DNA of 64,000 bases from contig JAPPFE010000016.1 in NCBI GenBank assembly GCA_028823955.1, forward strand, positions 12,497-76,496, read 5' to 3'. The notes below the pieces were generated by a model. It was given only the letters and a program-made list of their open reading frames with translations, had not been told where the DNA came from and did not search any database. This document shows positions 34,346-56,972 of the stretch, piece after piece. How positions within the stretch are numbered: the first letter of the stretch is position 1; every line of letters begins with the position of its first letter. A program made the translations under genes and the position numbers. This DNA is from Candidatus Dadabacteria bacterium. Lineage in GTDB: Bacteria > Desulfobacterota_D > UBA1144 > Nemesobacterales > Nemesobacteraceae.

Positions 34346-34421
34346 TCCGGCGTAGCTCAGTTGGCAGAGCAGATGACTGTTAATCATCGGGTCGCAGGTT
34401 CGAGCCCTGCCGCCGGAGCCA
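34346..34421 (+). tRNA. tRNA-Asn (anticodon GTT)
   Basis: Hand-folded cloverleaf. Acceptor stem TCCGGCG/CGCCGGA. D-arm GCTC-AGTTGGCA-GAGC. Anticodon stem GATGA/TCATC with loop CTGTTAA. T-arm GCAGG-TTCGAGC-CCTGC. Discriminator G and encoded CCA. Confidence 0.85.
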
Positions 34422-38679: not shown

Positions 38680-40520
38680 AGCCGGGATACAAACAGACGG
38701 AAGTCAGTCCTATTCCTGCAGACTTACATGCCGTTATAACTAACCCACAACGATTCAATAAAGATTGGGAGATAAAGCGGTTGGGGGATTTTGCCGACTG
38801 TGTGGCAGGTGGAACACCGAGCACGCTCAATAAAGAATATTGGGGTGGATCTATTAGATGGATGAGTTCCAGTGAATTAAACAACAAGATTATTCAGGAT
38901 GTTGAGAAGCGTATAACAGAGCGAGGTTTACGGGAATCGAATACCAAAATCATTCCGCCTAGATGTGTTTTAATAGGTTTGGCAGGTCAAGGAAAGACAA
39001 GGGGGACTGTGGCTATTAACTTGGTTGAGATTTGTACGAATCAGTCAATTGCAGCAATTTACCCCAATGAATCTTTTGTTCCAGAGTACCTCTATTATAA
39101 CCTTGATGCCCGCTACCACGAGTTACGTGGAATGTCTGCAGGAGATGGGGGTCGTGGAGGATTGAATCTTCAAATTATTCGATCTATCTTTGTGCCTTTT
39201 CCAGATATTACTGAACAATATGCAATTGCCAAAGTATTGTCGGATGTAGACGGATTACTCGCGGCCTTAGAGGTGCTGATAGTCAAAAAACGCGCCATCA
39301 AACGAGCCGCGATGCACCAACTTCTCACTGGTAGGATGCGCTTGCGGGAGTTTAACGGGGAATGGAGGACAAAGAAGCTCAGAGACTTACTTGCTTATCA
39401 GCGACCAGATAACTACATAGTGCAATCAACTGAAGATGCAAAGCATGGAGAAATCCCCGTATTAACAGCCAATAAGTCGTTTGTCTTACATTATACGGAT
39501 GAGGAGTTTGGTGTCTGTTCTGATGTTCCAGTCATTGTTTTCGACGATTTTACTACGGATTGTAAGTACGTAACATTTCCTTTCAAGGTGAAGTCGTCGG
39601 CAATAAAGCTCCTTCATGCTAACCATGACCGAATTAGTCTCAGGTATGTATACGAGCGCATGAAATTGGTTCATTTCCCGTTGGTTACTCACAAACGCTA
39701 CTATATCTCGGAGTATCAAAACATTGAGTTTTTTGTTCCTAGTTATGATGAACAAGTAGCAATTGTTTCTGTATTATCCGATATGGATGCTGAGATTGCA
39801 GCCCTCGAGCAACGTCGCGCCAAAATCGCCGACCTCAAGAAGGCGATGATGCAGGAACTGCTGACTGGCAAGACGCGGCTGGTTGAGCCTCAGGCGTTGG
39901 ATGAGCAGACCGATGCCGCGTTGGGCAACGCCAAAGGACACAACTGGGCGATCAACGAGGCAGTCGTGATCGCCACGCTGGTCAAGCACTTCGGAGGGGA
40001 GGACTACCCCTTAGGCCGCAAGCGGTACACGAAGCTTTCCTACCTGTTGCACCGCCATGTGGAACGGGAAGCCGATGGCTATCTCAAAAAGGCGGCTGGT
40101 CCCTACAACCCGCAAACCAAGTACGGTGGCCCGGAAAAGATCGCCAAGCAGAACGGCTACATCACGCAGCACAAAGGCTTGAAGGGACACAGCGGATTCA
40201 TCGCCGCAGACAACATCGCCCAGGCCGAAGGCTACTTCGAGAAGTGGTACGGCCCAGAAGTCATCCAGTGGCTGGAGCAGTTCCGCTACAAGAAGAACGA
40301 CGACTTGGAGTTGCTGGCCACCGTGGACATGGCAGCGTTGGAACTGCGAGCATCCGGAAAGAGCGTGACTGTCGCTGCCGTGAAGGACGTTATCACCAGC
40401 CATCCGGAGTGGGAGGCGAAGTTGGATCGCACCGCGTTCTCCGACGCGAACATCGCCGAAGCAATCAAACAGAGCGACGCCCTGCTGGGGGCTGAAATTG
40501 CCGGAGGTTCCCATGCCTGA
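38670..40520 (+). CDS. hsdS: Type I R-M specificity subunit with two TRDs, fused to an uncharacterised C-terminal domain of about 210 aa
   Basis: Two target-recognition-domain-like halves separated by conserved helices ([26 protein letters not shown]; [26 protein letters not shown]). The TRDs are low-GC. The ORF then continues about 210 aa in GC-rich sequence with no HsdS similarity. Its start overlaps the hsdM stop. Confidence 0.75.
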
Positions 40521-43500
40521 AAGAGCCCGACCCGAACGGCTAACCCAGAACCGCGTGGTAGCCCTGTTCACCGACAAGACCCGCTCCGACTGGCTGGAGT
40601 ATCGCTATCTCGGTGACTGGCATCAGCGTGAGAATAACCGGCCCATTGAGGCGGAACTGCTGCGAGCAAACCTCCATGAGCGTGGTTATACGGATGCGCA
40701 CATCTCAGCCGCGTTGCAAAAGCTGGAAACCGCTGCCGATACAACCGGCGTGACACTCTACCAGGCCAACTTACGCACCTACAACCTGCTACGCTACCCG
40801 GTGAAGGTGCAGGTCGCCGTCGGACGGTCGCACGAGGATGTGCATCTAATCGACTGGGAGCACCCGGAAAAGAACGACTTTGCTCTGGCCGAAGAAGTGA
40901 CCCTCAAGGGTGGCTACGAGCGCAGGCCGGACTTGGTGCTCTACGTCAACGGCATTGCGGTGGCTGTGATTGAGCTGAAACGCAGTTCGGTAGAAGTGGC
41001 CGACGGGGTGCGCCAAATCATCACGAATCAGGAAGAGATATTCAACAAGAACTTCTTTTCCGCCGTGCAATTGGTCTTCGCGGGCAACGATTCGCAGGGA
41101 CTGCGCTACGGGACCACCGGCACGCCGGAGAAGTTTTTTGTCCAGTGGAAGGATGAGGACGGCGGCACGGCGATGGAGCCGGGAACGCTCCTGGACAGGC
41201 CGCTGGCCCAGATGTGCCGAAAGGATCGCTTGCTCGATTTGATGCGGAACTTCATCATCTTCGACGCGGGCCAGAAGAAAGTGCCTCGGTCGCACCAGTA
41301 CTTCGGCCTCAAGGCCGCGCAGGAACGAATCGGCAAACGCGAGGGTGGCGTGATCTGGCACACTCAGGGCAGTGGCAAGAGCATTCTCATGGTGCTGCTG
41401 GCTAAGTGGCTGATGGAATACGACCCCGACGCTCGCATTCTGGTGGTTACCGACCGTGACGAACTGGATAAGCAGATCGTGGGCGTCATGCGTAACGCCG
41501 GGGTTATCGTCGAAGACGCCCCCTCACCGCGCATTACCTCGCGGGCGCAGTTCGTCGAGAAACTGGGCGCGACCACGCCTCGCTTGCTGTGTGCGCTGAT
41601 CCACAAATTTGACACGGCCGACCTCAGGGGCGATCCGCCGCCGATTCACGGGCGCTTCTACGTGTTCGTGGATGAGTGCCACCGCACCCAAGGCGGCGAC
41701 ATGAACCGGCAGATGAAGCGATGGATGGAGGATGCCATCTTCATCGGCTTCACCGGCACGCCGCTACTCCGCAAGGACAAGAAGACCACACGCGAAGTCT
41801 TCGGCACTTACATTCACACCTATAAGTTCCACGAGGCCGTGGCGGACAAGGTGGTGCTAGACCTCAAGTACGAAGCGCGTGATGTCCCCCAGCGGCTGAC
41901 CTCGCCGCAGGCCATCGATGCCTGGTTCAACCGGAGGACGCAGAACCTGAACAACTTCCAGAAGGCGGTGCTACGCAAGCGATGGGCAACGATGGAAGAG
42001 TTGATGAGCGCGGGTGAACGCAAACAACGCATCATCGCCAATATCATTGAAGACTTCACCCTCAAGCCGCGTCTCAATAATGATCGTGGTACAGCCATCC
42101 TAGTCGCGGCGTCGATCTACGACGCGTGCCACTACTTCCGGCTATTCCAGAATACGTCGTTTGGTCAGTATTGCGGGATCATCACCTCGTATGAACCGAA
42201 GCATAATGCCATCTCGCGTGAGCCCGCCAACAGTGACGAGCGGTATAAGTTCGATACATACACGCAGCATGTGCTATCCGACGGCCAGACGACCAAGCAC
42301 TACGAGGACGAGATGAAACGCCGGTTCATAGAGGAACCGGCCAACTGCAAGCTGCTGATCGTGGTCAGCAAGCTCCTGACCGGCTTCGATGCCCCGTCCT
42401 GCACGTACATCTACCTCGACAACGAACTGCACGACCACAACCTGTTTCAGGCGATCTGTCGGACAAACCGGCTAGATGGGGACGACAAGAACTACGGATA
42501 CATCGTGGACTTCAAGGAATTGTTCTGCGACGTGCAGGAAGCCATCGCCGTCTACAGTTCGGACGAGCTGGACATCGATGCCAACGGTAGCGATGGCAAT
42601 GTGATTGTGAAGAACTGGCTCGAAGAGGGCAAGAAGAAGCTTGATGCCGCCCGCGAGGCATTGAAGTATCTGTGTGAGCCTGTGGCTCAGCCCAGGGAGA
42701 TGGAGCAGTATCTCCACTACTTTTGTGGCGACGCCAGCGATCCGAACGCCCTCAGCGAGACCGAGGTCCCTCGTATCTCGTTCTACAAGGCTGTCGTGAC
42801 CTTCGTAAGGGCCTTTGCTGCTATTTCGCAGGACCTTTCGGACGCTGGTTACACCAATGCCGAGATTGCGGTGCTCAACAACGAATTCGAATTTTTCAGC
42901 GATACCCGAGCCGCCATCAAGAAGCACTCCGGTGAGGAACTGGACATCAAACCGTACGAAGCGGACATGCGCCACCTCATCAATACCTACATCCAGGCTG
43001 ACCCGGCCGATCAGTTGGGATCGGTGGACAACTATTCCCTGGTTGAGTTGATTATCGAGACGGGTATCCATGACGCCATTGCCAAGAAGCTCAACGAGAA
43101 GGGCAAACTCTCGAAGAACGCTGTGGCAGAGGGCATCATCAACAACGTCCGCAAGACGATCATCCGCGATCAGCTCACCGACCCGAAATTCTACGAGGAA
43201 ATGTCGAAGTTGTTGGACGACCTCATCGAAATGAAGCGGAACATTACCGAGTCGTATGAAGACTTCCTGCAGAAGGCCGAGGCACTTGTGCTCCGCATGA
43301 CTGGCAAGTCAACGAAGGGAACGCACCCCACGGTGTTGAACGGCCATCCGGAAGCAGTCCGGCTGTTTAACAATCTCGCGAGCATTCCGGCAGACACGTT
43401 TCAATGTCCCACTGACGAAGACGAGAAGGCAGAGCTCGCGTTGGACATCAACCGTGCAATGCGCGAGGAGGCACCGGCGGGATGGAAGGGAGACGACACG

Positions 43501-43605
43501 CGAGAAAAGCAGGTGCTTAACGCCCTGTTCCCCTTGATGGATCGCGACCGCAAGGCGACAGAGGCGCTGTTTGAGATTATCAAGAATCAATCGGGGTACG
43601 CATGA
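40513..43605 (+). CDS. hsdR: Type I restriction enzyme endonuclease/helicase subunit
   Basis: N-terminal nuclease domain, SF2 helicase motifs (HTQGSGKS Walker A, DECHR), and the HsdR C-terminal domain. Its start overlaps the hsdS stop. Confidence 0.9.
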
Positions 43606-44318
43606 GCGAAGTAATCGAACTTGGCGACATATCGATCACGGTGACGCGGAAAGAGATCAAGAACGTGCATCTTTCCGTCCACCCGCCCAGTGGCCGGGTC
43701 ACCATGTCCGCCCCGAAAGAGACGCGTCTGGAGGTTGCTCGCGCCTATGCCATCTCAAAGATAAGTTGGATTCGCGAGCAGCAAGAGAAGCTTCGGAAGC
43801 AGGCACGGGAAACGCCGCGTGAGTTCGTGGAGAGAGAAAGCCACTACCTGTGGGGCCGTCGATACTTGATGACGGTAATTGAGCAGGATTCGAAGCCCTG
43901 GGTCGCTCTTGATCCCAAGCGCATCACCATGAGCGTTCGCCCGGGCAGCGACCAAGCCAAAAGAGCGAGCATCATCCATGAATGGCATAAATCGCTGCTG
44001 CATGAATTCATTCCTCCGCTAATCGCCAGGTGGGAGCCGAAGTTAGGCGTTCACGTCGTAGCCTACTTCCTCCAGCGCATGAAGACCAAGTGGGGAAGCT
44101 GCAACCACAATGCGGGGCACATCAGATTGAATACGGAGCTGGTCAAAAAGCCCAAGGACTTGGTCGAATATGTCGTGGTGCATGAGATGGTCCATCTTAT
44201 AGAACCAACACACAGCGATAGGTTCATTTCGATCCTTACCGATCACTACCCATCATGGCGCGAATCCAGAGCAGAACTGAACGAATTGCCGCTGGCTGCT
44301 GAGGAGTGGAGAGAATGA
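43602..44318 (+). CDS. DUF45/YgjP-like zinc metallopeptidase (M48-type HExxH), a frequent accessory of type I R-M loci
   Basis: [18 protein letters not shown]...[20 protein letters not shown] is the WGSC...HExxH signature of DUF45. ATGA overlap with the hsdR stop. Confidence 0.75.
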
Positions 44319-45409
44319 GCGTTCTGGATGCTGTGATTGCGGTCCTTCAAGAAGCAGGTAAACCGCTTCACGCCAAGGAGATTACTAAGCGCATTCTCTC
44401 GAAAAACCTCTGGAAGACCTCCGGCAAGACCCCTGCTGCGACAGTCAGTGCCAGGCTTTACGCCGATCTCAAGAAAAACGGCGACACGTCCCCTTTCATC
44501 CTTCATGCACCTCAAAAGTTTGGTCTTAGGACGTCTAAGGCAGTTGATAAGTCGGATGTGGAAGCACAAACGAAAACAACAACTGCAACAACCGTCAAGG
44601 GCCACAGGAAGACCTATTCCTTTACCGATTCGGCTGAAAAAGTCCTCGAGAAGTTCGGCGATAAGCGGCCCATGCATTACCGCGCCATCACCAACAAAGC
44701 TCTGGAAATTGGATGGTTGTTGACCGAGGGAAAGACACCGGAAGCGTCGATGTACGCGCAAATCTTGACGGAAATTAAACGCTTTAACCGCCGTGGGAAG
44801 CAGCCTCGATTCGTTCAACATGGTAAGGGGTATGTTGGCCTTTCAAAATGGATGGGTCGGGGGCTCGCATTTGAGATCGAACAGCACAACAAAAAGGTGC
44901 GCCAGGCGCTGCATAAACGTTTGCTTGAAACGGAGTGGGATGCCTTTGAGGAATTGATTGCGCGTCTCTTGGCAGAAATGGGTTTTGAGGAAATCGAGGT
45001 TACCAGTCGCAGTAAGGATGGCGGCATCGATGTTCGGGGAACCTTGGTTGTCGGTGATGTCATTCGGACGAGAATGGCTATTCAAGTAAAGAAATGGAAG
45101 CGCAACGTACAGGCTCCGGTTGTCCAACAGGTCCGAGGGAGTCTCGGCACCCACGAGCAGGGGCTCATCATCACAACCAGTGATTTCAGTGCAGGCGCAC
45201 GCAGGGAATCCGCCAGACCGGATGCCACGCCCGTCGGGCTAATGAGTGGTGAGCAACTGGTTTTACTGCTCATCGAAAACGGCATTGGGGTTTCACGACG
45301 AAGTCATGACTTATTTGAACTCGAGGATATATCCAGTGCAGAGGTCGGCACCAGTGCTGGTGCACCCAGTAATCAATTGAATGATAAAGGACAAGAACAG
45401 CAGGAATAG
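44315..45409 (+). CDS. mrr: Mrr-like restriction endonuclease with an N-terminal HARE-HTH/winged-helix domain
   Basis: N-terminal wHTH (LDAVIAVLQEAGKPLHAKEI). A C-terminal Mrr_cat-like PD-(D/E)xK domain (GGIDVRG...IQVKKW). ATGA overlap with the DUF45 stop. Confidence 0.7.
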   Translation: MSVLDAVIAVLQEAGKPLHAKEITKRILSKNLWKTSGKTPAATVSARLYADLKKNGDTSPFILHAPQKFGLRTSKAVDKSDVEAQTKTTTATTVKGHRKTYSFTDSAEKVLEKFGDKRPMHYRAITNKALEIGWLLTEGKTPEASMYAQILTEIKRFNRRGKQPRFVQHGKGYVGLSKWMGRGLAFEIEQHNKKVRQALHKRLLETEWDAFEELIARLLAEMGFEEIEVTSRSKDGGIDVRGTLVVGDVIRTRMAIQVKKWKRNVQAPVVQQVRGSLGTHEQGLIITTSDFSAGARRESARPDATPVGLMSGEQLVLLLIENGIGVSRRSHDLFELEDISSAEVGTSAGAPSNQLNDKGQEQQE

Positions 45410-45412
45410 GAG

Positions 45413-48400
45413 ATGGCGGACCGGTCGGACACAAACAGAACGCGGGCATCCATGGCTCACCTTTTAGGTGAGGCATCGAGGAACCTTGCGCGTTTTCTGG
45501 AAAAGGTACTGCCAGGCCTTTTTGACAATTGGTGGGACGAGGCTGTCGTCAACATTCTTTCATTTCAGCAGCGGCGTCGGGTCAAAGAATGCGATATCAA
45601 TTCCTTGGCATCTTTGGATCTCGCTGCGCTGCTTCGTGTGCTTGATCAGAACTGGTATCAGATATCAACGAAACTGGAGTTGACGTCAGAGGCACGCCAC
45701 TTTGTTAAAGAGATGCAGACAGTTCGAAACAGATGGGCGCATGCGGGCAGTGAGGGATTCCCCGTAGACGACGTATACCGGGACCTGGATACGTTACAGC
45801 GCTTCGCTGTTGTCGTTGAGGCTAATGAAAGCCTGCTCGACGAAGTGCGCGAGACAAAGGCGTCCTTGCTTTCCAAGGACCGTCTTGGCCCTGATCAAGA
45901 TGATGCTGTTGTGGAAAGTCCATCTCTGGAGGCACCGGGGTCTGATACGGAATTTACGCCCGGTCAGATCGTTCATCTCAAATCAAATCCAGCCATGCGT
46001 GGTGCCGTCGTTTCCTCAATGCTAGGCAAACCGGAGAACCGATTCCTAGTGTTCATGGACGGCGAAACGCATACCTACTATGCATCACAGCTAAAAGCGG
46101 AAGACCAACCGGAGGACGAATCGCGGTTCTTGCCCTGCGATGAATTCCATTCATACCTCACCGCTTTGCAGATTCGATATCCAGGACTTTCAACGCTTTA
46201 TTCTTTGAATGCCGCCCGTGTGGATTTCATCCCATATCAATTCCGCCCCGTCTTGAGATTCATCCGATCAGATCGTCCCCGATTACTGGTTGCTGACGGT
46301 GTTGGCGTCGGCAAGACCATTGAGGCTGGTTTGATTCTCCGAGAGCTGCAGGCCAGGCGCGACATACGATCCATCTTAATCATTTGTCCCCGACCGCTTG
46401 TTACCGAACGCAAATGGCAAATTGAGATGAAGCGGTTTGAGGAGCGTTTTGTTCATCTGGATGGCCCAACACTGAGGTACTGCATCAACGAAATGGATCT
46501 GGAAGGGTTTTGGCCAGAGCAGCACCAACGAATTATCATCCCATATTCCCTGTTCGATGAAGCGCTTTTATATGGTTCGGACGGCAGGCGAAAACGCAAA
46601 AAAGGCCTGCTGGACTTGGATCCGCCCCCTCGGTTTGATTTGGTCATCGTAGACGAAGCTCATCATATACGGAACCAGGATACGTTCAGTCACAAGGCGG
46701 TGCGATTTTTCTGTGACCATGCGGAAGCCGTGATCTTTCTGACCGCGACTCCCATTCAACTCGACAATCATGACCTGTTCGTCTTGCTGAACACCCTTCG
46801 CCCCGACCTGATTCTCGATCAAGAGAGCTTCGAGCACATGTCAGAGCCGAATCCGTTCATTAATCAAGCGGTAGCCTTGGCCCGTGCCCAAGAGCCGGAA
46901 TGGGCCATCAAAGCCAAGGAGGCTCTGGACAACGCGGCGGGAACGTCTTGGGGGCAGTCAATTCTCAGGCACAATCCAGAGTTCAATCGTATAAATGCAT
47001 GGCTCGCCGACGGCAAAATCGGTTCGGAAGAGCGCGTGCAGCTGATAACCGCTCTCGAGGCTCTGCATACGTTTTCAGGGATAATCAACCGAACGCGCCG
47101 CCGCGATATTGGAGAGTTTACGGTACGCAAGCCCGAAACCGTCGTTGTTGAATTTACTTCGAATCAGAAAGATCTGCATGACGAGTTGCTTCAGGTGCAG
47201 GCAGAGATATTCAGCAGGCTTCACGGGGATGTCAATGTCAAGTTCATGATGACAACCATTCGCAGGCAGGCGGCCAGTTGTCCTTTTGGACTTGTACCCT
47301 TCCTCGAGGAAATACTGAGCCGCCACCTTGATGAATTGTCATGGGAAGAAGCGGACAACACCGAGTTTGTCCCCAAAAGCGACGCTGTTGACAGCATTGA
47401 ATCACGTATCCAGGCAATCCTTGGAAAGGCTCGTGACCTCGATCCATACGATCCGAAACTGGACGCTCTCCGCAATATCATCCGGGACAAGCAAAAGCTA
47501 CCCAATAACAAGGTGATGCTTTTCAGCAGCTTCCGTCACACGCTTCACTATCTCTATGAACATCTCAAGGCGGATGGATTTAGGGTTGGACTTGTTCACG
47601 GCGGAACACCTGATGAGGACCGGGTCGGGCTTCGGAATCGCTTTGAATTGCCGCCAAATCAGGATGACGGCCTCGACATTTTATTGTTTTCAGAGATTGG
47701 CTGCGAAGGTCTGGACTACCAGTTCTGTGATTGCATCGTCAATTACGACCTGCCATGGAACCCCATGCGGGTGGAACAGAGGATTGGCCGCATAGATCGG
47801 AATGGACAGAAGAGCGAGAGTGTCGCCATTTTCAATTTGATCACGCCGGGCACCGTCGATGCGGATATCTACGAGCGGTGCTTGGTGCGGATTGGTGTGT
47901 TCAACAGCGCCCTCGGTGGCAGCGAGGAGATACTCGGGGAGATCACCAAGGAGATTCGCAGCATCGCGGAAAATTTCTCCTTGAACGAAACAGAACGCGG
48001 AGAGCAGCTTCAACAACTGGCGGACAACAAAATCAGGCTGATACAGGAACAGGACGAACTTGAACAGAAACAACTCGAACTGTTCGGCATCCGTCTGCCC
48101 CAAGATCAGATGAAGCGGGAAATCGAGCAAGCATCGAGCTACTGGCTGTCTCCTGTATCGATACGAAGGCTTATTACGATTTACCTTCAGCGCACTTGTG
48201 GCAGGGATCAGGAATTCATACTTGGCGAAAAAGCGCTTAAAACGTTGCGTCTGTCCCAAGAAGCCAGAAACAATCTGTTGCGAGATTTCCGGAGTATCCC
48301 ACGTCAGAACACGACCGTTTATCGCGAATGGGAAAACTGGCTCAAAGGGGGGGACCCGCATCTCCTTATTACATTCGACTCCGAGTGCGCTTCGCAACAC

Positions 48401-49012
48401 CCCGAAGCGGTCTTCATAATGCCCTTTCATCCTTTTGTAAAACAGGCGGCCGCGACCTTCGATACAAAAAGGCGGGTCATGACGGTTTTGCAGTACAAAA
48501 GCAATAAAGTCCCCAAAGGCAGCTATGAATTCGCGGTCTATCAGTGGCAGTTCCACGGCGTTAGGGAGGACTTGGTTCTACAGCCGGTTGCTTCGAATGA
48601 TGTTGTAACCAAGCACATCTCCAGTCTTCTTGAGGGGGCAGAAAGCATAACAACGGAAAGAGTCGATACCCCAGATCCGGATACATGGAACGGTCTGGAT
48701 GCTCAGCATCATAAGATGTGGTCTGAGGCGCGCATCCGGCATCAGCGTAGAACCCAGGAGCTGGCGGAGTACCGGAGGGAAAGTCTTACAACAAGCCACA
48801 GAGCACGAATTGCTCTCTTGGAGGAACAACTCGAGCAGGCAACAAATGAAAGAATCCAGAAGATGCGACGTTCTCAGATAGCCGCGGCGGAGGCCGACTA
48901 TGCGCGACGCATTCAGGAGTTGGATATAGCGATGGAGAGAGCTGAGGTAACCGCCGGGCCCGTAGCTTATGGTGTCATTCAAGTCGATGAGGGCTCGACC
49001 AATGCCGAGTGA
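45413..49012 (+). CDS. 1199-aa fusion: N-terminal Swt1-like HEPN domain plus SNF2-family (SF2) helicase/ATPase plus a C-terminal domain of unknown function with coiled-coil
   Basis: HEPN R-x4-H motif in VRNRWAHAG. SNF2_N Walker A (ADGVGVGKT) and DEAH box (DEAHHIRN...LTATPIQ). Helicase_C motifs (LLFSEIGCEGLDYQ, QRIGRIDRNGQ). Starts 3 nt after the mrr stop. Confidence 0.75.
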   Translation: MADRSDTNRTRASMAHLLGEASRNLARFLEKVLPGLFDNWWDEAVVNILSFQQRRRVKECDINSLASLDLAALLRVLDQNWYQISTKLELTSEARHFVKEMQTVRNRWAHAGSEGFPVDDVYRDLDTLQRFAVVVEANESLLDEVRETKASLLSKDRLGPDQDDAVVESPSLEAPGSDTEFTPGQIVHLKSNPAMRGAVVSSMLGKPENRFLVFMDGETHTYYASQLKAEDQPEDESRFLPCDEFHSYLTALQIRYPGLSTLYSLNAARVDFIPYQFRPVLRFIRSDRPRLLVADGVGVGKTIEAGLILRELQARRDIRSILIICPRPLVTERKWQIEMKRFEERFVHLDGPTLRYCINEMDLEGFWPEQHQRIIIPYSLFDEALLYGSDGRRKRKKGLLDLDPPPRFDLVIVDEAHHIRNQDTFSHKAVRFFCDHAEAVIFLTATPIQLDNHDLFVLLNTLRPDLILDQESFEHMSEPNPFINQAVALARAQEPEWAIKAKEALDNAAGTSWGQSILRHNPEFNRINAWLADGKIGSEERVQLITALEALHTFSGIINRTRRRDIGEFTVRKPETVVVEFTSNQKDLHDELLQVQAEIFSRLHGDVNVKFMMTTIRRQAASCPFGLVPFLEEILSRHLDELSWEEADNTEFVPKSDAVDSIESRIQAILGKARDLDPYDPKLDALRNIIRDKQKLPNNKVMLFSSFRHTLHYLYEHLKADGFRVGLVHGGTPDEDRVGLRNRFELPPNQDDGLDILLFSEIGCEGLDYQFCDCIVNYDLPWNPMRVEQRIGRIDRNGQKSESVAIFNLITPGTVDADIYERCLVRIGVFNSALGGSEEILGEITKEIRSIAENFSLNETERGEQLQQLADNKIRLIQEQDELEQKQLELFGIRLPQDQMKREIEQASSYWLSPVSIRRLITIYLQRTCGRDQEFILGEKALKTLRLSQEARNNLLRDFRSIPRQNTTVYREWENWLKGGDPHLLITFDSECASQHPEAVFIMPFHPFVKQAAATFDTKRRVMTVLQYKSNKVPKGSYEFAVYQWQFHGVREDLVLQPVASNDVVTKHISSLLEGAESITTERVDTPDPDTWNGLDAQHHKMWSEARIRHQRRTQELAEYRRESLTTSHRARIALLEEQLEQATNERIQKMRRSQIAAAEADYARRIQELDIAMERAEVTAGPVAYGVIQVDEGSTNAE

Positions 49013-52004
49013 TTATGATCAAATCAGAGCGGACAATATCCGGGAATACGGTGAGGGAACCCGCCATCTATCTCTTCTTGAGCGTTTATATACGGACCGG
49101 ACGCATTTTATTTTCGAGCTGTTGCAGAACGCTGAAGACGCTGGGGCGACAAGAATTCTGTTTGAGCTTTCCGAAGAAATGCTTGAAGTCAAGCATGATG
49201 GCCGCCCCTTTAACGAGCTCGATGTGAGGGGTGTTTGTGGGGTCGGAGAAGGCGAAAAAGCTGAAGACCTGACACAAATCGGAAAATTTGGGATTGGATT
49301 TAAGTCGGTTTATGCCTACACATCCTCTCCCGAGGTTCATTCTGGGGACGAGCATTTTCGCATTGAGCATTATGTGCGTCCCTGTCCCGCTGATCCCAAA
49401 GAAGCCGGTGACTCTTGGACCACTCTTTTCTGCTTCTCGTTTGATGTACCGACGATGGAGGCTGAAACGGCTTTCAGTGAAATCGCTGCCCGGCTGCGCA
49501 ACCTGAGTGCTAGGACCCTTCTGTTTCTTCGAAGAATCAAGGAAATCGAATACAAGCTTCCCGACGAATCAAGTGGTGTATATCTGCGTGAAGAAATGCC
49601 CCGCGGTCCTGCCAGACAAGTGACCGTGATCGGGCAAAATAACGGTGAAGATGAGGATGAGAACTGGCTTGTCTTTGAGAAGCCGGTTTCCATCCCAAAT
49701 AGCGACTACCCGGTGAAGGTTGAAGTGGCCTTTAAGCTCGAGACGGACACGAAAGAAAAGACCGAGTGGATAACTCGTATCAAGGATGCACCCTTAGTGG
49801 TGTATTTCCCAACAGAAAAGCCAACTCGCTTTGGATTTCTCATTCAGGGCCCGTACAGAACTACACCGTCCCGAGACAATATTCCCAAGGATGACGATTG
49901 GAATACAAACCTTGTTGAGGAGACGGCCAGCCTGCTCGTGGATGCGTTGATAAATCTAAGAACAATGGGGTTGCTGACAGTATCTTTACTCGAATCAATG
50001 CCTATCCGAATGGATGATTTTCCTAAAGGAAGCATGTTTTTTCCCATAACCGAATCTGTCCGCGCTGCCTTTCTTGAACATGAATTGCTGCCTGCGGACG
50101 ACGGAACTTTCGCGAACGCAAAAGACGCCAAGCTCGCCCGTGGTGGGGATTTGAGGAAGCTCCTTGGCCAGGAGCAACTCCGCTCCCTATTTCAATCCGG
50201 CGGTCAGGTTAAATGGTTGGTTGGGACAATCACTCGGGACCGAAAGCCGGACTTGCGAACGTATCTGATGAGTGAGCTTGGTGTGGAGGAGATCACGCCC
50301 GATGGATTTGCCCGAAAGCTCTCAGGGACATTTTTGAAAGTTCAACCAGATGACTGGATGACTTTAATGTACGGGTATGTTGGTGATGAAAAAGCTCTCT
50401 GGCAGACGGGAAGCGGATACTGGAATCCTCCAGGCCCGTTACGTTCTAGACCGATTATTCGTCTTCAAGATGGTTCACAAGTTATACCGTTCCGGGAGGA
50501 TGGATCTCCAAATGCATACTTGTCGGATGGCAATCACACTGAGACTTCCCTGCCAGTCGTAAAGGCAGATCTCTGCCGGCACAAGGAGACCCAACAGTTT
50601 TTAAGGGCCCTGGGTATCCCCGAGTTGGATCTCGTGGAAGAAGTCATTGAAAAGGTCCTGCCAAAATATGCAAGCGACGATTCAGTAGTTGCTATTGAAG
50701 AGCACCAACGCGATATCATTGTAATTGAAAAGGCTTACGGCACGGATTCCCAAGAAAAGAAGAGTCGCCTCCGTGATCGGCTATGTGAAACGCCTTTCGT
50801 GCGTGCAGAGAGTCAAGATGTCGAAGAGCCTATGTACCGGAAGCCGTGCGAGCTTTATTTCGGAAGCAATGAACTGCGATTGTATTTTTCTGGAAACAAC
50901 GCGATTGGATTCGTCAACACTGAATACCCTGAATCCGTTAGATCGCTGTTTGAGGATTTTGGGGTAGTGGATTCTGTACGGGTTTCCCGGAAGGGACAAA
51001 ACGGGCAAGGGCATGTTGTTCTTAAAGATCATCATGGTTGGCATGAAAGGGGTCTTGATGGTTTTGATCCAGACATTTTTGTTGAGGGGTTAGAAATCGC
51101 GTTGGCTTCACCAACGCTGGAGAAAAGTCAATTCATCTGGAATAACATTGCTGTTCGACATTTTTCATGCATTCGTGGTGTGGTCGAGTCGTGTCCGCGA
51201 CAAACTTATGAGGGCAGCACCGAGGAAGATCGAATATCAGAATTTGGACGTTTGCTTATAGAAAATACTTGGCTGCCGTTTTCAGATGGAAGCCTGAAGA
51301 AACCGGGGGAACTCACACTCGATGATCTTCCCGACTCCTTCATAAGAGACGAAAAGCTGGCCCAGCAACTCGGGATGAAGCTGGATCTTATTGCTAAACT
51401 CGCGGAAGAAACAGGCGTAACTGCTGAGGATATCGAACTGCTTAAACTTCATCCGACAGAGTTCCAGCAATGGAAAGCGGCAATATCAGCCGCTAAGGAA
51501 AAACCGGCATTCCCCGAGAGGGCTTCTTCGGACCCGGAGCGCAGACGAGAGAAACTTACTGAGCAACTTGGCGACTCTCCCACCAAGAAATACGAGCAAC
51601 GGGACAGAAGTGTTCGGACAACAAGAAGTGCAATTGATCCGGTTCTGTGGCTCAGGAATCAATACAAGAATGATGCTGGACAGATGATATGCCAGATATG
51701 CAAAGAGGAGATGCCTTTTAGGAAGCGTGATGGGGAATACTATTTCGAAGCTGTTGAGGCTCTTACCAAAGATCATTTCACAATAGAACATGAAGCACAA
51801 TTCTTGGCTTTGTGTCCTTTGTGCTCAGCAATGTACAAAGAATTCATTAAGCCTGATGAAGAGGCTATGGTGGAATTGAAACACGTAATAAGGAACACGG
51901 ATGAGTGCGAAGTTCCTCTGCGTCTCGGGGGACTGAATACAAGCATTCGATTTGTCGAAGCCCACTTTCAGGATATCAGGACCATACTTGAGGAGCAGGA
52001 ATGA
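49002..52004 (+). CDS. 1011-aa protein: N-terminal sacsin/Hsp90-like GHKL ATPase, large middle region, and a C-terminal Cys4 HNH/zinc-ribbon-like module
   Basis: Bergerat-fold motifs ELLQNAEDAGAT (N box), HDGRPF (G1) and GKFGIGFKSVY (G2). C-terminal CQIC...H..IEHE...CPLC. Its start overlaps the upstream gene's stop (ATGCCGAGTGA). Confidence 0.7.
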   Translation: MPSDYDQIRADNIREYGEGTRHLSLLERLYTDRTHFIFELLQNAEDAGATRILFELSEEMLEVKHDGRPFNELDVRGVCGVGEGEKAEDLTQIGKFGIGFKSVYAYTSSPEVHSGDEHFRIEHYVRPCPADPKEAGDSWTTLFCFSFDVPTMEAETAFSEIAARLRNLSARTLLFLRRIKEIEYKLPDESSGVYLREEMPRGPARQVTVIGQNNGEDEDENWLVFEKPVSIPNSDYPVKVEVAFKLETDTKEKTEWITRIKDAPLVVYFPTEKPTRFGFLIQGPYRTTPSRDNIPKDDDWNTNLVEETASLLVDALINLRTMGLLTVSLLESMPIRMDDFPKGSMFFPITESVRAAFLEHELLPADDGTFANAKDAKLARGGDLRKLLGQEQLRSLFQSGGQVKWLVGTITRDRKPDLRTYLMSELGVEEITPDGFARKLSGTFLKVQPDDWMTLMYGYVGDEKALWQTGSGYWNPPGPLRSRPIIRLQDGSQVIPFREDGSPNAYLSDGNHTETSLPVVKADLCRHKETQQFLRALGIPELDLVEEVIEKVLPKYASDDSVVAIEEHQRDIIVIEKAYGTDSQEKKSRLRDRLCETPFVRAESQDVEEPMYRKPCELYFGSNELRLYFSGNNAIGFVNTEYPESVRSLFEDFGVVDSVRVSRKGQNGQGHVVLKDHHGWHERGLDGFDPDIFVEGLEIALASPTLEKSQFIWNNIAVRHFSCIRGVVESCPRQTYEGSTEEDRISEFGRLLIENTWLPFSDGSLKKPGELTLDDLPDSFIRDEKLAQQLGMKLDLIAKLAEETGVTAEDIELLKLHPTEFQQWKAAISAAKEKPAFPERASSDPERRREKLTEQLGDSPTKKYEQRDRSVRTTRSAIDPVLWLRNQYKNDAGQMICQICKEEMPFRKRDGEYYFEAVEALTKDHFTIEHEAQFLALCPLCSAMYKEFIKPDEEAMVELKHVIRNTDECEVPLRLGGLNTSIRFVEAHFQDIRTILEEQE

Positions 52005-52293: not shown

Positions 52294-53487
52294 CTAAAAA
52301 TCTATTTCATGCAGTTTATGCCAAGGCACGATATCCCCGTCCGTCCGTTGCTGAAGTTGTTTTCCTCCATAGGCTATGACTATATTGCACGGACGGGATA
52401 ATTCGGTTAGGTGCTGGCGGACGCGTCGTACACCGCTGAACAGCCTCGAAGATACTGTTGCCGTGGACTTGGCGTCGACAAGCGTAATGCGGGACGGATC
52501 CTCGATGATAATATCTACCTCGGCTCCATTACGGTCGCGGTAAAATGAGAGACCCCCGGTCTTGCCACTGTTGCTTCGGTGTTTTGTTATCTCCGAGACT
52601 ACCCAGGTTTCGAAAATCGGGCCGCGAAGCGGATGAGAGTTTAACTGTTCGGGTGTCCGGATACCCAGGAGCCAACAGACTAGCCCTGTGTCGTAGAAAT
52701 GCAGCTTCGGCATCTTTACGAGTCTCTTGCGCAGGTTCGAGTGAAAAGTCGGAAGGCGGAAAACGATAAAGCTCGTCTCAAGTATGTTAATCCAGGATTT
52801 CGCACTCGGCTGCGATATGCCGCAGTCATCAGCCAGTGAGGAATAGTTGAGCAACTGCGCCGTACGCCCGGCACACAGTTGGACAAACCGTTGGAATGTA
52901 GCTATATCAGCTACGTTGCTTACTGTTCGCACATCGCGTTCCACGTAAGTGGTGACATAAGAGCGAAACCAGTCGGACGGATCAAGATCAAGATCGAATA
53001 TACGTGGGTATCCGCCGGCAAAAAGGGTCTCCTCAAGACTCGGGGGATGTCTGTCGAATCGCGTAATCTCGTTGCGCGCGAGAGGAAACAGGTTATATAC
53101 TGCTGTCCTCCCGGCTAAAGACTGGCTGACCGATTTGAGTAGAGAAAAGTTCTGTGACCCCGTAAGTATCCAGCGCCCCGGCGCAGGATCTTCGTCGATT
53201 ATGCCCTGCAGGTAGGAGAGAAGATCAGGCGCACGCTGCACCTCGTCGATTACGCAGCCTTTTGGAAATTGAGCCAGAAACCCTCTGGGATCCTCAGTTG
53301 CGAAAGCCCGTATGTCCGGAGCCTCAAGGCTTGCGTACGGATGGTGAGCGAACAAGGCCCTGCATAATGTTGTCTTACCGCTTTGCCGGGGTCCCGTAAG
53401 CGTGATGGAGGGAAACTTCCGCGCTGCTTCGATAAGCCTTGGTGCTAGGTTGCGATTGATCATAACCAGTCGCAGTCTAACTGACAA
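52294..53487 (-). CDS. AAA-superfamily ATPase with a C-terminal DUF4143 domain
   Basis: Walker A GPRQSGKTT and Walker B VIDEVQ, with the AAA_14 + DUF4143 architecture. GC-rich like the island. Confidence 0.7.
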   Translation of the reverse strand: MSVRLRLVMINRNLAPRLIEAARKFPSITLTGPRQSGKTTLCRALFAHHPYASLEAPDIRAFATEDPRGFLAQFPKGCVIDEVQRAPDLLSYLQGIIDEDPAPGRWILTGSQNFSLLKSVSQSLAGRTAVYNLFPLARNEITRFDRHPPSLEETLFAGGYPRIFDLDLDPSDWFRSYVTTYVERDVRTVSNVADIATFQRFVQLCAGRTAQLLNYSSLADDCGISQPSAKSWINILETSFIVFRLPTFHSNLRKRLVKMPKLHFYDTGLVCWLLGIRTPEQLNSHPLRGPIFETWVVSEITKHRSNSGKTGGLSFYRDRNGAEVDIIIEDPSRITLVDAKSTATVSSRLFSGVRRVRQHLTELSRPCNIVIAYGGKQLQQRTDGDIVPWHKLHEIDF

Positions 53488-53960: not shown

Positions 53961-56707
53961 CTAACCGAGAAGCGGTCTCAGGTGCTCTCCGGTATAAGAG
54001 TTTTCTACCGAAGCGACCTGTTCCGGAGTACCGGAGGCCACTATGCGTCCCCCGTTATCTCCTCCCTCAGGTCCGAGGTCAACTACATAATCCGCGCATT
54101 TTATCATCTCAAGGTTGTGCTCTATGACTATTACGCTGTTGCCGGCGTCGACAAGCCTGTTAAGAACGTCGAGGAGTTTTCCTATGTCGTCGATGTGAAG
54201 TCCGACCGTGGGTTCGTCAAGGATGTAGAGGATGTTGTTTTTTTCTTTTTTTGAGAGTTCCCGGGCTATCTTTATCCTCTGGGCCTCTCCTCCCGACAGT
54301 GTTGTTGCGGGCTGTCCGAGCCTCAGATAACCGCATCCGACATCCTTTAGAACCTTGAGCTTTCTGGTAACGGCCAGGTTTCCCGAGAAAAACCCCATGG
54401 CCTGATCGACGGTGAGGTTAAGTATGTCGTCTATGTTTTTCCCCTTGTACCTGTAGGCCAGTACATCTTTTCCAAACCTTTTTCCTCCGCATTCCTCGCA
54501 CGTCACCATGACGTCGGCGAGAAAGTGCATCTCGACCCTGTGACTTCCCTCACCCATACATTTCTCGCAGCGGCCTCCCCTCACGTTGAAGGAAAAATGC
54601 GACGGGGTAAGTTTGCGAAGTTTCGCTTGGTAGTGCCCGGCGAGGATTTTGCGTATGTCGTCGTAAACCTTTATGTAAGTGACGGGATTTGATCTCGAGG
54701 TTCTTCCTATGCTCGCCTGATCAAGAATTATCACGTCGTCTATATGCTCTGTGCCTTCTATACGTTCGTGTTTTCCGACCCTTTCGGCTTTCCTCCTGAA
54801 TTTTCTTAGGAGAGCGTTATGCAGGATGTCGTTTACAAGCGAGCTTTTCCCCGAACCCGAGACCCCGGTTACGCACGAGAGGGTTCCAAGGGGAAAACGG
54901 ACGTTTATGTTCTTGAGGTTATTTTCGCTCGCGCCGATTACGTTTATTGAATTGCCGGTGGTTTTTCTGCGGGAACCGGGAACTTCTATTTTCTTTTCGT
55001 TTGCGAGGTATTTTTTCGTGGTCGAGTTCTTCGCCGAACGCAGGAAACTCTTCAGGGTCCCCTGATACACGACCTCTCCCCCCCCGTCTCCCGCCCGGGG
55101 ACCGAGTTCCACTATGTAGTCTGCGGACTTTACAGTGTCAAGATCGTGTTCTATAAGTATGATGGTGTTGTTTCTTCCCCGGAGTTCTCTTATCAGCGAA
55201 TTGAGCCGGTTCATGTCTCTTGCGTGCAGACCGATCGAGGGCTCGTCCAGAATATACAGGGTCTCGGTAAGCCGCGAACTCATCTGGCAGGCAAGGTTTA
55301 TCCTCTGCGCTTCTCCGCCCGAGAGGGTACGGGTGAGCCTTGAGAGGGTCAGGTAATCAAGCCCCACGTGGATAAGAAAATCCAGCCGTGAATTTATTTC
55401 CTTTATTATGTCGGAGGCGATCTCCAGTTCATAAGCGGACAGGGTCAAGCGGTCAAACCAGGACCTCAGATCCTTTACGGACATCTCGGAGAGATGGAAT
55501 ATGCTTTCCTCTTCTATTCGCACGTTGAGGGCTTTTTCCTTGAGCCTGCTTCCCCCGCAGTCCTCGCAGGTAAACGCGGAGCGGTATCTCGAGAGAAAAA
55601 CCCTTATGTGGGTTTTGTAATTTTTCCGCTCAAGCCTTTTGAAATACCCTTTCACGCCGTAGTAGTACTCGTCTCCGTTTAACACGAGATCTTTTTCCCT
55701 TGCCGAAAGTTCCGAGAAGGGCTTTTCCGTATCTATTCCCGCGTCCTCGGCGAAGGCGAGCAGCTTTCTCATCTGTTTTCTGTAGGAAGTTTTCGTGAAG
55801 GGATCTATTGCCCCTTCGGCGAGACTGAGAGCGGGGTCCGGAACAAGGAGTTCGGGATCGATTTCAAGGTTTCTTCCGAATCCGCTGCATCGTTCGCAAG
55901 CCCCGTAGGGACTGTTGAAGGAAAACGTGTTCGGGGTAGGTTTTTCAAACCCAATATCGCAGAGATCACAGCGAAGTTCTCTTGAGAAACGCAGGCTCTG
56001 CCCTGAAACGATGTGTACAAGCGCCCGGCTGCTCTCGGAAAAAGCGGCCTCGAGCGCTTCTGTAATCCTCGATTTCGACCGTTCTCCTATAACGGTTCTC
56101 GCGGTGACTACCTGGGTCTTTGCGTCCGGATCCTCCAAGCTTTTTTCCATATCCCGGGTCTTTCCGTTCCGGTAGGTGCGTGAGTAGCCTTTTTTCATAT
56201 ATTGTGAAAGATCCGCTCCCTCTTCGGTCTCAAAGCAGATGACGGCTCTTTCCCCTGGGAATTTTTCGAGTAGCAGCCGAGTTAGGGACTGTGGAGAGTG
56301 TTCCATCACTTCCTCTCCGCATTCTGGGCAGCGGGTTTTTCCGATTTTCGCGAACAGAAGTCTCGTGTAGTCATATATTTCGGTTGTGGTGCCTACTGTG
56401 GAACGGGAATTTATGACGTTGTTTCGGCTTTCGATGGCTATCGGGGTTGGAAGACCTTCTATGTCGTCCATCGCGGGGCGCTCGACTTTCTCTATAAACT
56501 GTCTTGCGTAGGTTGAAAGGCAGTCGATATACCTCCTGAGCCCTTCCTTGTAAACGGTGTCAAGCACGAGGGATGACTTGCCCGAACCGCTAAGACCGGT
56601 CACCACCGTGAACCTGTTTTGAGGGATCAGGACATCTATGTTTTTCAGGTTGTTTTCCCTAGCGCCTTTTATCTCTATGTATCCGTTTCGTTTAGCGGTC
56701 TTCGACA
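53961..56707 (-). CDS. uvrA: Excinuclease ABC subunit A
   Basis: Two ABC ATPase modules (GLSGSGKSSL, GVSGSGKSSL), the LSGGEAQR signatures, and zinc-finger Cys clusters. The start is probably the internal Met near 56707 (MSKTAKRNGYIEIKGAREN), not the track start. Confidence 0.9.
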
Positions 56708-56972
56708 TGCGGTTTCCCCGCCCCGGCTTATCCGCCCCCAAGGGATTTCCCCTTCCCCCGAGCGGCATTTGTAACGAAATTGAGGTTTGCCGGGGCATTC
56801 GGTATTCTTTTCCTTGGGAAAGATGAATATCCCGTGGTTTCTCACTTTAACTTTACACAATTATCATGCAGTTTTTTTCCGAGATGCGGCATTATTGCGT
56901 GGGCGTTGCGCAGGACAGCGCTTGGTGCTGGAGAGCCGTTTTCACAATACTTTTTCGTTTCGAGGCGAGTAG

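Follow-up and report, generated by a model that had tools for sequence, protein, structure and literature searches.

Organization of the locus

The window analysed here, a stretch of 64,000 nucleotides (nt) of contig JAPPFE010000016.1 from a Candidatus Dadabacteria bacterium (64-kb window), contains two adjoining genes, which are referred to as gene A and gene B. The open reading frame (ORF) of gene A encodes a protein of 1199 amino acids (aa), in which a Swt1-like HEPN domain, a predicted RNase, is fused to a SNF2 helicase. Gene B encodes a sacsin-type GHKL ATPase, and its start overlaps the end of gene A by 11 nt. The two genes constitute a mobile cassette, which shifts between unrelated genomic contexts, often defence islands, and which is most likely a defence cassette whose DNA-dependent ATPases would gate the HEPN RNase. 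The cassette comprises the following features:

45413..49012, + strand: gene A, HEPN(Swt1-like)-SNF2 helicase (Pfam HEPN_Swt1, SNF2-rel_dom and Helicase_C)
45479..45817, + strand: HEPN_Swt1 domain, residues 23-135 of gene A (Pfam match, AlphaFold2 (AF2) model, matches in relatives)
45725..45742, + strand: predicted catalytic motif R105-N-R-W-A-H110, an Rx4H whose R is followed by a polar residue (conservation, position in the model)
45818..45952, + strand: variable linker, residues ~136-180 (low identity, lower model confidence)
45953..46192, + strand: small pre-helicase domain, residues ~181-260 (common to DrmD-type helicases)
46193..47806, + strand: SNF2 ATPase core (Pfam; motif residues kept in homologues)
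47807..49012, + strand: helicase C-terminal region, residues ~799-1199 (conserved; the DrmD model reaches residue 1059)
49002..52004, + strand: gene B, sacsin/Hsp90-type GHKL ATPase, 1000 aa (Pfam SACS, NCBIfam, Foldseek, adjacency)
49080..49424, + strand: Bergerat ATP-binding fold of gene B with ExxxNxxD, DG and GxFGxGF boxes (invariant residues)
51690..51824, + strand: C-terminal CxxC...CxxC element of gene B, C897, C900, C938 and C941 (cysteine conservation)

The Swt1-like HEPN domain of gene A

The original prediction had proposed a Swt1-like HEPN motif at the N-terminus of a SNF2 helicase, based on the string VRNRWAHAG about 100 residues into the 1199-aa protein (within 45690-45780). This string occupies residues 104-112 (nt 45722-45748), and R105 and H110 indeed have the R-x4-H spacing. 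The bare Rx4H pattern is uninformative, because four such strings are observed in gene A and residue shuffles yield a mean of 2.8; the evidence for the predicted HEPN domain is the profile match together with the conservation of its residues. The Pfam family HEPN_Swt1 (PF18731) matches residues 23-135 with model positions 8-114 of 115, and the score of 66.2 bits lies well above the gathering cutoff of 27.5 (E 3.9e-18).

A homology search of 5.8 billion proteins revealed thousands of relatives, the best 120 of which (72-100% identity) were analysed. All 120 have the HEPN_Swt1, SNF2 and Helicase_C architecture, and the few that carry organism labels represent several phyla, with Thermodesulfobacteriota, Sedimentisphaerales, Thermotogaceae and Bacteroidota among the labels. 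The motif RNxW[AS]H is kept in 119 of them; the sole exception, P0120, reads QNRWTY, so that both catalytic residues are replaced. Six or more contigs carry this variant in identical form; the three places shown (L090-L092) come from three samples. An exhaustive HMMER search with residues 1-180 yielded 1023 clusters at the 50% identity level (E<=1e-3). In an alignment of 108 relatives with 31-61% identity, R105, N106, W108 and H110 are each conserved in at least 90% of the sequences, and all 108 also match PF18731. A scan of these relatives at loose thresholds gave weak secondary matches to RiboL-PSP, Apea, Abi_2, DUF4145 and DUF4559, which is consistent with membership in the HEPN superfamily. 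The original prediction was to be given up if no HEPN family matched or if R and H varied among homologues; a HEPN family matches, and both residues are conserved. The N-terminus of gene A is thus assigned as a Swt1-like HEPN domain and predicted RNase, and its putative active site is competent-looking.

The AF2 model of residues 1-180 is all-helical and has a mean predicted local distance difference test score (pLDDT) of 92.4 and a predicted template modelling score (pTM) of 0.83. The modelled helices comprise residues 4-36, 40-59 (in two segments), inserted short helices at 70-88, 92-109 and 118-134. The R-N-R-W-A-H motif forms the C-terminal end of helix 92-109 (helix 3) and is followed by an 8-residue loop to helix 118-134, which agrees, at the level of secondary structure, with the published description of HEPN domains (PMC3710099). 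A Foldseek comparison of the model with the PDB gave no match with E<1, the HEPN toxin HepT appearing only at E≈2.6, and a search of BFVD gave no match. Neither residues 1-181 nor the family profile retrieved a match from the PDB in sequence searches, and PADLOC, applied to the HEPN domain alone, returned only a stray match to a CARF-HEPN model (E 0.03). The profile match and the topology therefore support the modelled HEPN fold, which superposition on solved structures does not yet do. The family hidden Markov model (HMM) found no further HEPN match elsewhere in the window.

The SNF2 helicase of gene A

Downstream of the HEPN domain, the SNF2 helicase of the original prediction was recovered with essentially invariant motifs. 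Pfam assigns SNF2-rel_dom to residues 291-477 and Helicase_C to residues 682-798, and the motifs include the Walker A sequence GVGKT (298-302), DEAH (414-417), TATP (444-447), motif V (GCEGLD, 763-768) and motif VI (QRIGRIDR, 789-796). Each residue of the motifs I, II, III, V and VI is kept in 114-120 of the 120 homologues, and the SNF2 ATPase is predicted to be intact and of the DrmD/BrxHII/HmaA type. The best PADLOC match is the DrmD model PDLC02623 (E 3.4e-113), which covers residues 181-1059 only; further matches were obtained to BrxH (E 2.6e-53) and HmaA (E 3e-40). The start of the DrmD model at residue 181 and the alignment of HEPN-less rhizobial homologues, which sets in at residue ~180, mark the small pre-helicase domain. 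An N-terminal Tudor domain has been described for BrxHII and BR helicases (PMC12839542). No Pfam domain and no nuclease match was found in residues 801-1199.

The HEPN region and the rest of the protein are conserved to the same degree. Mean identity among the 120 homologues is 0.76 in the HEPN region and 0.38 in the linker (residues 136-180), where the pLDDT falls to 63-80 across residues ~151-180.

An assignment of gene A as DrmD of a DISARM system was rejected, since the NCBIfam DrmD equivalog model scores 307.6 bits with a cutoff of 610; unlike gene A, the DrmD model is devoid of a HEPN domain. DrmA, DrmB, DrmC and a DISARM methylase were not identified among the nine cluster proteins scanned, and a sub-best match of the DrmA model to the helicase core of gene A reflects shared SF2 helicase domains.

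Gene B encodes a sacsin-type GHKL ATPase

Gene B is matched by Pfam SACS (E 1.2e-18) and by the NCBIfam model of the sacsin N-terminal ATP-binding domain (93 bits, cutoff 50), and it matches the SR1 region of sacsin in the PDB by sequence (E 1e-8; PDB 5v44-5v47). Its AF2 model (pLDDT 84.7) was matched by Foldseek to full-length Hsp90 (1.8e-8) and also to sacsin SR1, MutL/MLH1 and the topoisomerase II ATPase. The Bergerat-fold residues E39, N43, D46, G67, G94, F96, G97, G99 and F100 are invariant among 64 homologues of 53-76% identity. Taken together, the SACS and sacsin profiles, the SR1 match, the Bergerat residues and the Foldseek matches identify gene B as a sacsin-type GHKL ATPase. Four cysteines near its C-terminus (C897, C900, C938 and C941) are invariant or nearly so; the CxxC...CxxC element is probably a zinc ribbon, and the Pfam zinc-finger matches to it are weak.

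The PADLOC model of TmtA also matches gene B (E 4.7e-70). TmtA constitutes the single-gene anti-phage system Tiamat, which is described as containing a PD-(D/E)XK nuclease (preprint 10.1101/2024.10.26.620412). The likeness comprises ~750 N-terminal residues (model positions 33-808 of 1302) and extends well past the ATP-binding fold; the last ~500 model positions are absent, and no nuclease domain was found in gene B. As gene B is also a paired gene with a zinc-ribbon-like end, its identification as Tiamat was rejected. PADLOC v2 does not capture the cassette as a system and labels its genes only as DrmD-like and TmtA-like; for annotation, the cassette genes should be named neither DISARM nor Tiamat.

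In some loci (L022, L067 and L085), the partner has ~1500 aa with an insertion of ~800 aa between conserved N- and C-terminal parts, SACS being the only domain seen by Pfam. L085 possesses an additional partner copy of standard size upstream of the helicase.

Linkage, distribution and mobility of the cassette

A genome scan with a 16-sequence HEPN alignment, for which one genome per species was used (185,579 species genomes), found the HEPN subfamily in at least 345 species-representative genomes (~0.2%), which are patchily distributed over many phyla. In 75 of the 80 loci that were fetched, the HEPN ORF runs on into the helicase core, and the catalytic motif is intact in at least 73. The original prediction had called the HEPN-SNF2 fusion unusual, which did not hold: the fusion is the prevailing architecture in this HEPN subfamily and had been listed in 2013. 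Linkage could be tested in the 57 loci in which the helicase is complete and is followed by 600 nt or more of sequence; in 56 of them, a gene B homologue comes next after the helicase, mostly overlapping it. The partner also lies directly downstream in all four metagenome contexts, the flanks of which are unlike each other: type I restriction-modification (R-M) genes; a MmeI/Mza-like island; housekeeping genes; and type I R-M together with Fic and AAA_15. No published description of a pairing of HEPN-SNF2 with a sacsin-type ATPase was found, although coverage of the literature was incomplete, which makes this no more than absence of evidence.

A census of 104 flanking ORFs from 26 loci revealed an enrichment of R-M subunits, Mrr, AbiEii-type ATPases, integrases and transposases and no obligatory third gene. 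Among viral contigs, the HEPN subfamily of the cassette was found in only 3 of 2.9 million. Cassettes from scattered phyla share 55-90% identity, and this patchy spread indicates horizontal transfer. The HEPN-SNF2 helicase and the sacsin-type ATPase are thus a mobile two-gene cassette.

The surroundings bear on two other explanations of the cassette. It could be a guard of type I R-M systems that resembles PrrC or RloC; the R-M complex would keep it latent, and a phage that disables restriction would set the HEPN RNase free. The cassette of the window lies in a tight array with hsdM, hsdS and hsdR, locus L005 and several genome loci also adjoin type I R-M genes, and HEPN proteins within R-M neighbourhoods were described as PrrC/RloC analogues in the 2013 census. 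However, the pair also occurs among housekeeping genes with no R-M gene nearby (L004/L035), HsdR-type domains are present in only 3-4 of the 104 flanking ORFs, and the only invariant linkage is that of gene A with gene B. Because the pair occurs without R-M, such a coupling is possible in this genome but is not general, and we consider a guard function quite unlikely as an account of the cassette.

Alternatively, the cassette could be a module for housekeeping or stress that serves transcription and RNA quality control, in which a RapA-like SNF2 protein acts on RNA polymerase or R-loops together with an RNase and a chaperone-like ATPase. A match of the helicase core to RapA (E 6.9e-51) would fit this proposal, but at 173 bits it stays below the cutoff of 576. 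Sacsin and Hsp90 are chaperones, and one locus lies among housekeeping genes. A presence in ~0.2% of species genomes, scattered and with indications of horizontal transfer, defence and mobile-element genes as neighbours, and several frameshifted or shortened copies all speak against it, and the closest profile matches are the defence proteins DrmD, BrxH, HmaA and TmtA. A housekeeping role is thus very improbable.

The helicase is split across frames or shortened in some loci (L031, L039, L066, L070 and L072; L015, L068, L079 and L081). L079 is a deletion remnant, and the split or shortened copies are either decaying cassettes or assembly errors of metagenome-assembled genomes (MAGs). The nearest relatives of the cassette of the window include MAGs of Poriferihabitaceae and Poribacteria, which are sponge-associated lineages. 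A Bacteroidota MAG carries the same block of YgjP, Mrr and cassette genes with a HEPN identity of 89%, which points to a recent transfer of this larger block between phyla.

Comparison with known HEPN and GHKL systems

The HEPN-SNF2 fusion is not new. A census of HEPN domains listed, among the Swt1-like members, a "SWI2/SNF2-ATPase (WQE_15321), active" and reported independent fusions of HEPN domains with R-M system helicases of the SWI2/SNF2, EcoEI-like and SF-I kinds (Anantharaman et al. 2013, Biol Direct 8:15). The WQE_15321 type, which may be orthologous to the gene A family, shares the domain family and the kind of fusion with gene A; its Rx4-6H motif was scored as active, and it was grouped with R-M-like helicase fusions. 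The entry consists of one table row and one sentence and does not include a partner gene, a distribution or a mechanism. What is added here is the conserved sacsin-type ATPase partner and evidence for nuclease swapping.

The Hma/BR (Type-1 BREX-related) system consists of HmaA (SNF2-DUF3883 nuclease), the methylase HmaB and HmaC, a DUF499 ATPase often with an N-terminal Swt1-type HEPN domain, which has been read as a backup suicide RNase (PMC12839542); HmaA has been validated against phage T4. Hma/BR and the cassette share the same broad clade of SNF2 helicases, a second ATPase and a Swt1-type HEPN domain. However, the HEPN domain is attached to the AAA+ ATPase in Hma/BR and to the helicase in gene A, and the second ATPase is a STAND/ORC-like DUF499 protein there and a GHKL protein here. 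A DUF499 ATPase, a DUF1156 methylase and a DUF3883 or PD-(D/E)XK nuclease of the helicase were not detected in the cluster of the window.

Operons of MORC or paraMORC GHKL ATPases with SWI2/SNF2 helicases and DNases have been described in mobile, R-M-like neighbourhoods (Iyer, Abhiman & Aravind 2008, Biol Direct 3:8; PMC2292703). As in these operons, a GHKL ATPase gene lies beside a SNF2 helicase gene in the cassette (56 of the 57 testable loci). In contrast to the MORC proteins, gene B has sequence matches to sacsin alone (Pfam SACS, NCBIfam, PDB 5v44-5v47), and the HNH or EcoRII-like DNase of the MORC operons is replaced by a predicted HEPN RNase fused to the helicase.

Eukaryotic sacsin (SACS) likewise combines sacsin-type GHKL modules with a HEPN domain. 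It differs from the cassette in that it is a single polypeptide, that its HEPN domain belongs to the HEPN-T family (PF05168) and is not Swt1-like, and that it contains no SNF2 helicase; common descent of the combination of ATPase and HEPN is not claimed. The cassette thus rearranges known parts: the HEPN domain is on the helicase, the GHKL ATPase is of the sacsin and not of the MORC type, and there is no methylase.

Modularity of the HEPN domain and exchange of nucleases

Relatives of the HEPN domain with 39-63% identity head STAND-WD40, HerA-like, FGE-sulfatase, vWA and pentapeptide-repeat proteins, and the presence of the same HEPN domain on such unlike proteins forms the pattern of a swappable effector domain. 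Proteins of this kind include P0126, P0127, P0188, P0204, P0214 and P0269. Two relatives matched the HEPN query twice, and one tandem pair, which belongs to an FGE-sulfatase protein, was confirmed by Pfam.

The HEPN-less rhizobial helicase core shares 48% identity with gene A from residue ~180 onwards. A HEPN-less version of the cassette is located on the conjugative plasmid pCTYH.Ch1_3 of Ensifer adhaerens (NZ_CP118613.1; L006), where an unknown protein of 184 aa is followed by the helicase core, then by the SACS partner and finally by a RecB-like PD-(D/E)XK nuclease-helicase of the TM0106 family. Two Rhizobium plasmids contain a similar HEPN-less helicase match. The 184-aa protein was ruled out as a detached HEPN domain, as it gave no Pfam match and an hhalign probability of 0.8%. 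The nuclease would thus be exchanged between a HEPN domain in gene A, a RecB-like protein in the rhizobial plasmids and a PD-(D/E)XK domain in cis in Tiamat, and the simplest summary of these arrangements would be a constant helicase and GHKL core with interchangeable nucleases.

As an alternative to an RNase, the HEPN domain could mainly be a non-catalytic module for RNA binding, sensing or dimerisation, a role that has been proposed for eukaryotic Swt1, in a system whose effector acts on DNA, composed of the SNF2 motor, a GHKL clamp and facultative DNases. Several observations speak in favour of such a module. The HEPN domain of eukaryotic Swt1 itself is considered inactive, and variants with a dead motif exist, R or H being lost in ~10 of the 150 best representatives. 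A dead-motif variant, P0120, is maintained with an intact cassette, both helicase and partner, and with no other nuclease in view, and is the chief reservation about an RNase effector. DNase genes abut some cassettes: of 60 genome loci, 6 have Mrr and 9 an SF1-helicase gene, and the RecB-like gene is present in the HEPN-less plasmids. The related validated systems HmaA and Tiamat use DNases. However, R105, N106 and H110 are kept in ~90% or more of the relatives across 31-100% identity, which would be difficult to account for if the domain were not catalytic. In most cassettes (~75-85%), no DNase lies alongside, and the 2013 census scores the Swt1-like HEPN-SNF2 fusion as active. A non-catalytic HEPN domain is therefore regarded as unlikely.

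Proposed mechanism

It is somewhat probable that the cassette is a mobile defence-type unit, which combines a SNF2 translocase of the DrmD/BrxHII/HmaA clade, bearing a HEPN endoRNase, with a TmtA-related GHKL ATPase. A role in defence is suggested by the gene linkage, the patchy spread, the defence and mobile-element genes in the flanks, the modularity of the HEPN domain, the nuclease swap and the precedents of related systems, and also by the fact that R, N, W and H are kept and that the motifs of both ATPases are intact.

HEPN RNases are metal-independent and make up a composite active site from the two domains of a dimer; GHKL ATPases form dimers once ATP is bound. Since gene A contains one HEPN domain per chain, a dimeric active site would call for activation by an induced pairing of two helicases. 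In the proposed mechanism, the SNF2 motor and the GHKL ATPase would jointly recognise an invader on DNA, and the HEPN RNase would remain inactive as long as two helicase protomers have not come together. This pairing might result when the GHKL partner dimerises through its N-terminus in an ATP-driven manner, or when motors meet on foreign DNA. The paired HEPN domains would then cut RNA (tRNA, rRNA or mRNA) and halt translation, thereby leading to abortive infection or growth arrest.

The original prediction had suggested a sensor-effector design, in which the translocation or ATPase state gates the RNase, and fusions of HEPN domains with NTPases are read along these lines in the field (PMC3710099; PMC12839542). 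By analogy, such a gating of the HEPN domain by an ATPase is plausible; however, any gating model must include the conserved second ATPase encoded by gene B, which was absent from the original prediction.

Should the cassette be a defence system, it would be a case of two different DNA-associated ATPases controlling an RNase, within a HEPN-SNF2 family that is large and experimentally untouched. A further-reaching proposal holds that the cassette is an undescribed, widespread anti-phage system, in which GHKL dimerisation assembles the HEPN RNase on invader DNA, and that the partnership mirrors the one in sacsin; this is conceivable and put forward only tentatively. With the cassette, the link of sacsin-type ATPase modules with HEPN domains, which is poorly understood, could be studied in bacteria under tractable conditions. 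If the partnership of ATPase and HEPN is real, it could serve as a bacterial model for the control of HEPN by sacsin, which is mutated in the ataxia ARSACS.

Genomic surroundings in the window

In the window, the cassette forms the end of a co-directional array of seven genes (hsdM, hsdS, hsdR, a gene for a YgjP-like peptidase, mrr, gene A and gene B), which spans positions 35941-52004 (~16 kb) and in which the genes overlap or are at most 3 nt apart. The features around the cassette are:

34346-34421, + strand: tRNA-Asn(GTT), just upstream of the seven-gene array
35941-38679, + strand: HsdM, unusually long with 912 aa, with a C-terminal extension of ~460 aa without Pfam domains
38670-40520, + strand: HsdS, type I specificity subunit, 616 aa (Methylase_S and PADLOC models end near residue 405)
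44306..45409, + strand: two HARE-HTH domains and a Mrr-type restriction endonuclease (Pfam, PADLOC candidate PDC-S02)
52294-53487, - strand: AAA_14 and DUF4143 ATPase, just downstream of the array (PADLOC candidate PDC-S01, E 2.3e-110)
53961-56798, - strand: UvrA-like ABC ATPase, 945 aa, which also matches the MADS 'mad3' model

The GC content is 0.55-0.59 at 36-44 kb and ~0.50 elsewhere in the window, and the array looks like a tRNA-associated genomic island. An att-like direct repeat of the tRNA-Asn 3' end was not found.

The mrr gene ends 3 nt before the start of gene A, and 6 of 60 genome loci (L010, L021, L029, L039, L043 and L046) likewise have a homologue that adjoins the cassette on its upstream side; the HARE-HTH and Mrr gene is thus recurrent and optional, and it may be a facultative third component. 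The SF1-helicase gene encodes a protein of ~1180-1260 aa with an unknown N-terminal half and an SF1 (superfamily 1) helicase in the C-terminal half. Nine of 60 genome loci and two metagenome loci have it directly downstream of the cassette, whereas the window has no counterpart. The loci concerned are L003, L005, L011, L013, L019-L021, L029, L034, L043 and L044, and the gene is split in some of them.

HsdS carries a C-terminal extension of ~210 aa (~39855-40520), which was ruled out as a HEPN domain, as it has no Rx4-6H motif and no Pfam match. One PADLOC model of a type I methylase spans the full length of HsdM. The UvrA-like ATPase is probably the housekeeping UvrA, because genes for serine hydroxymethyltransferase (SHMT) and an NrdR-type protein come next.

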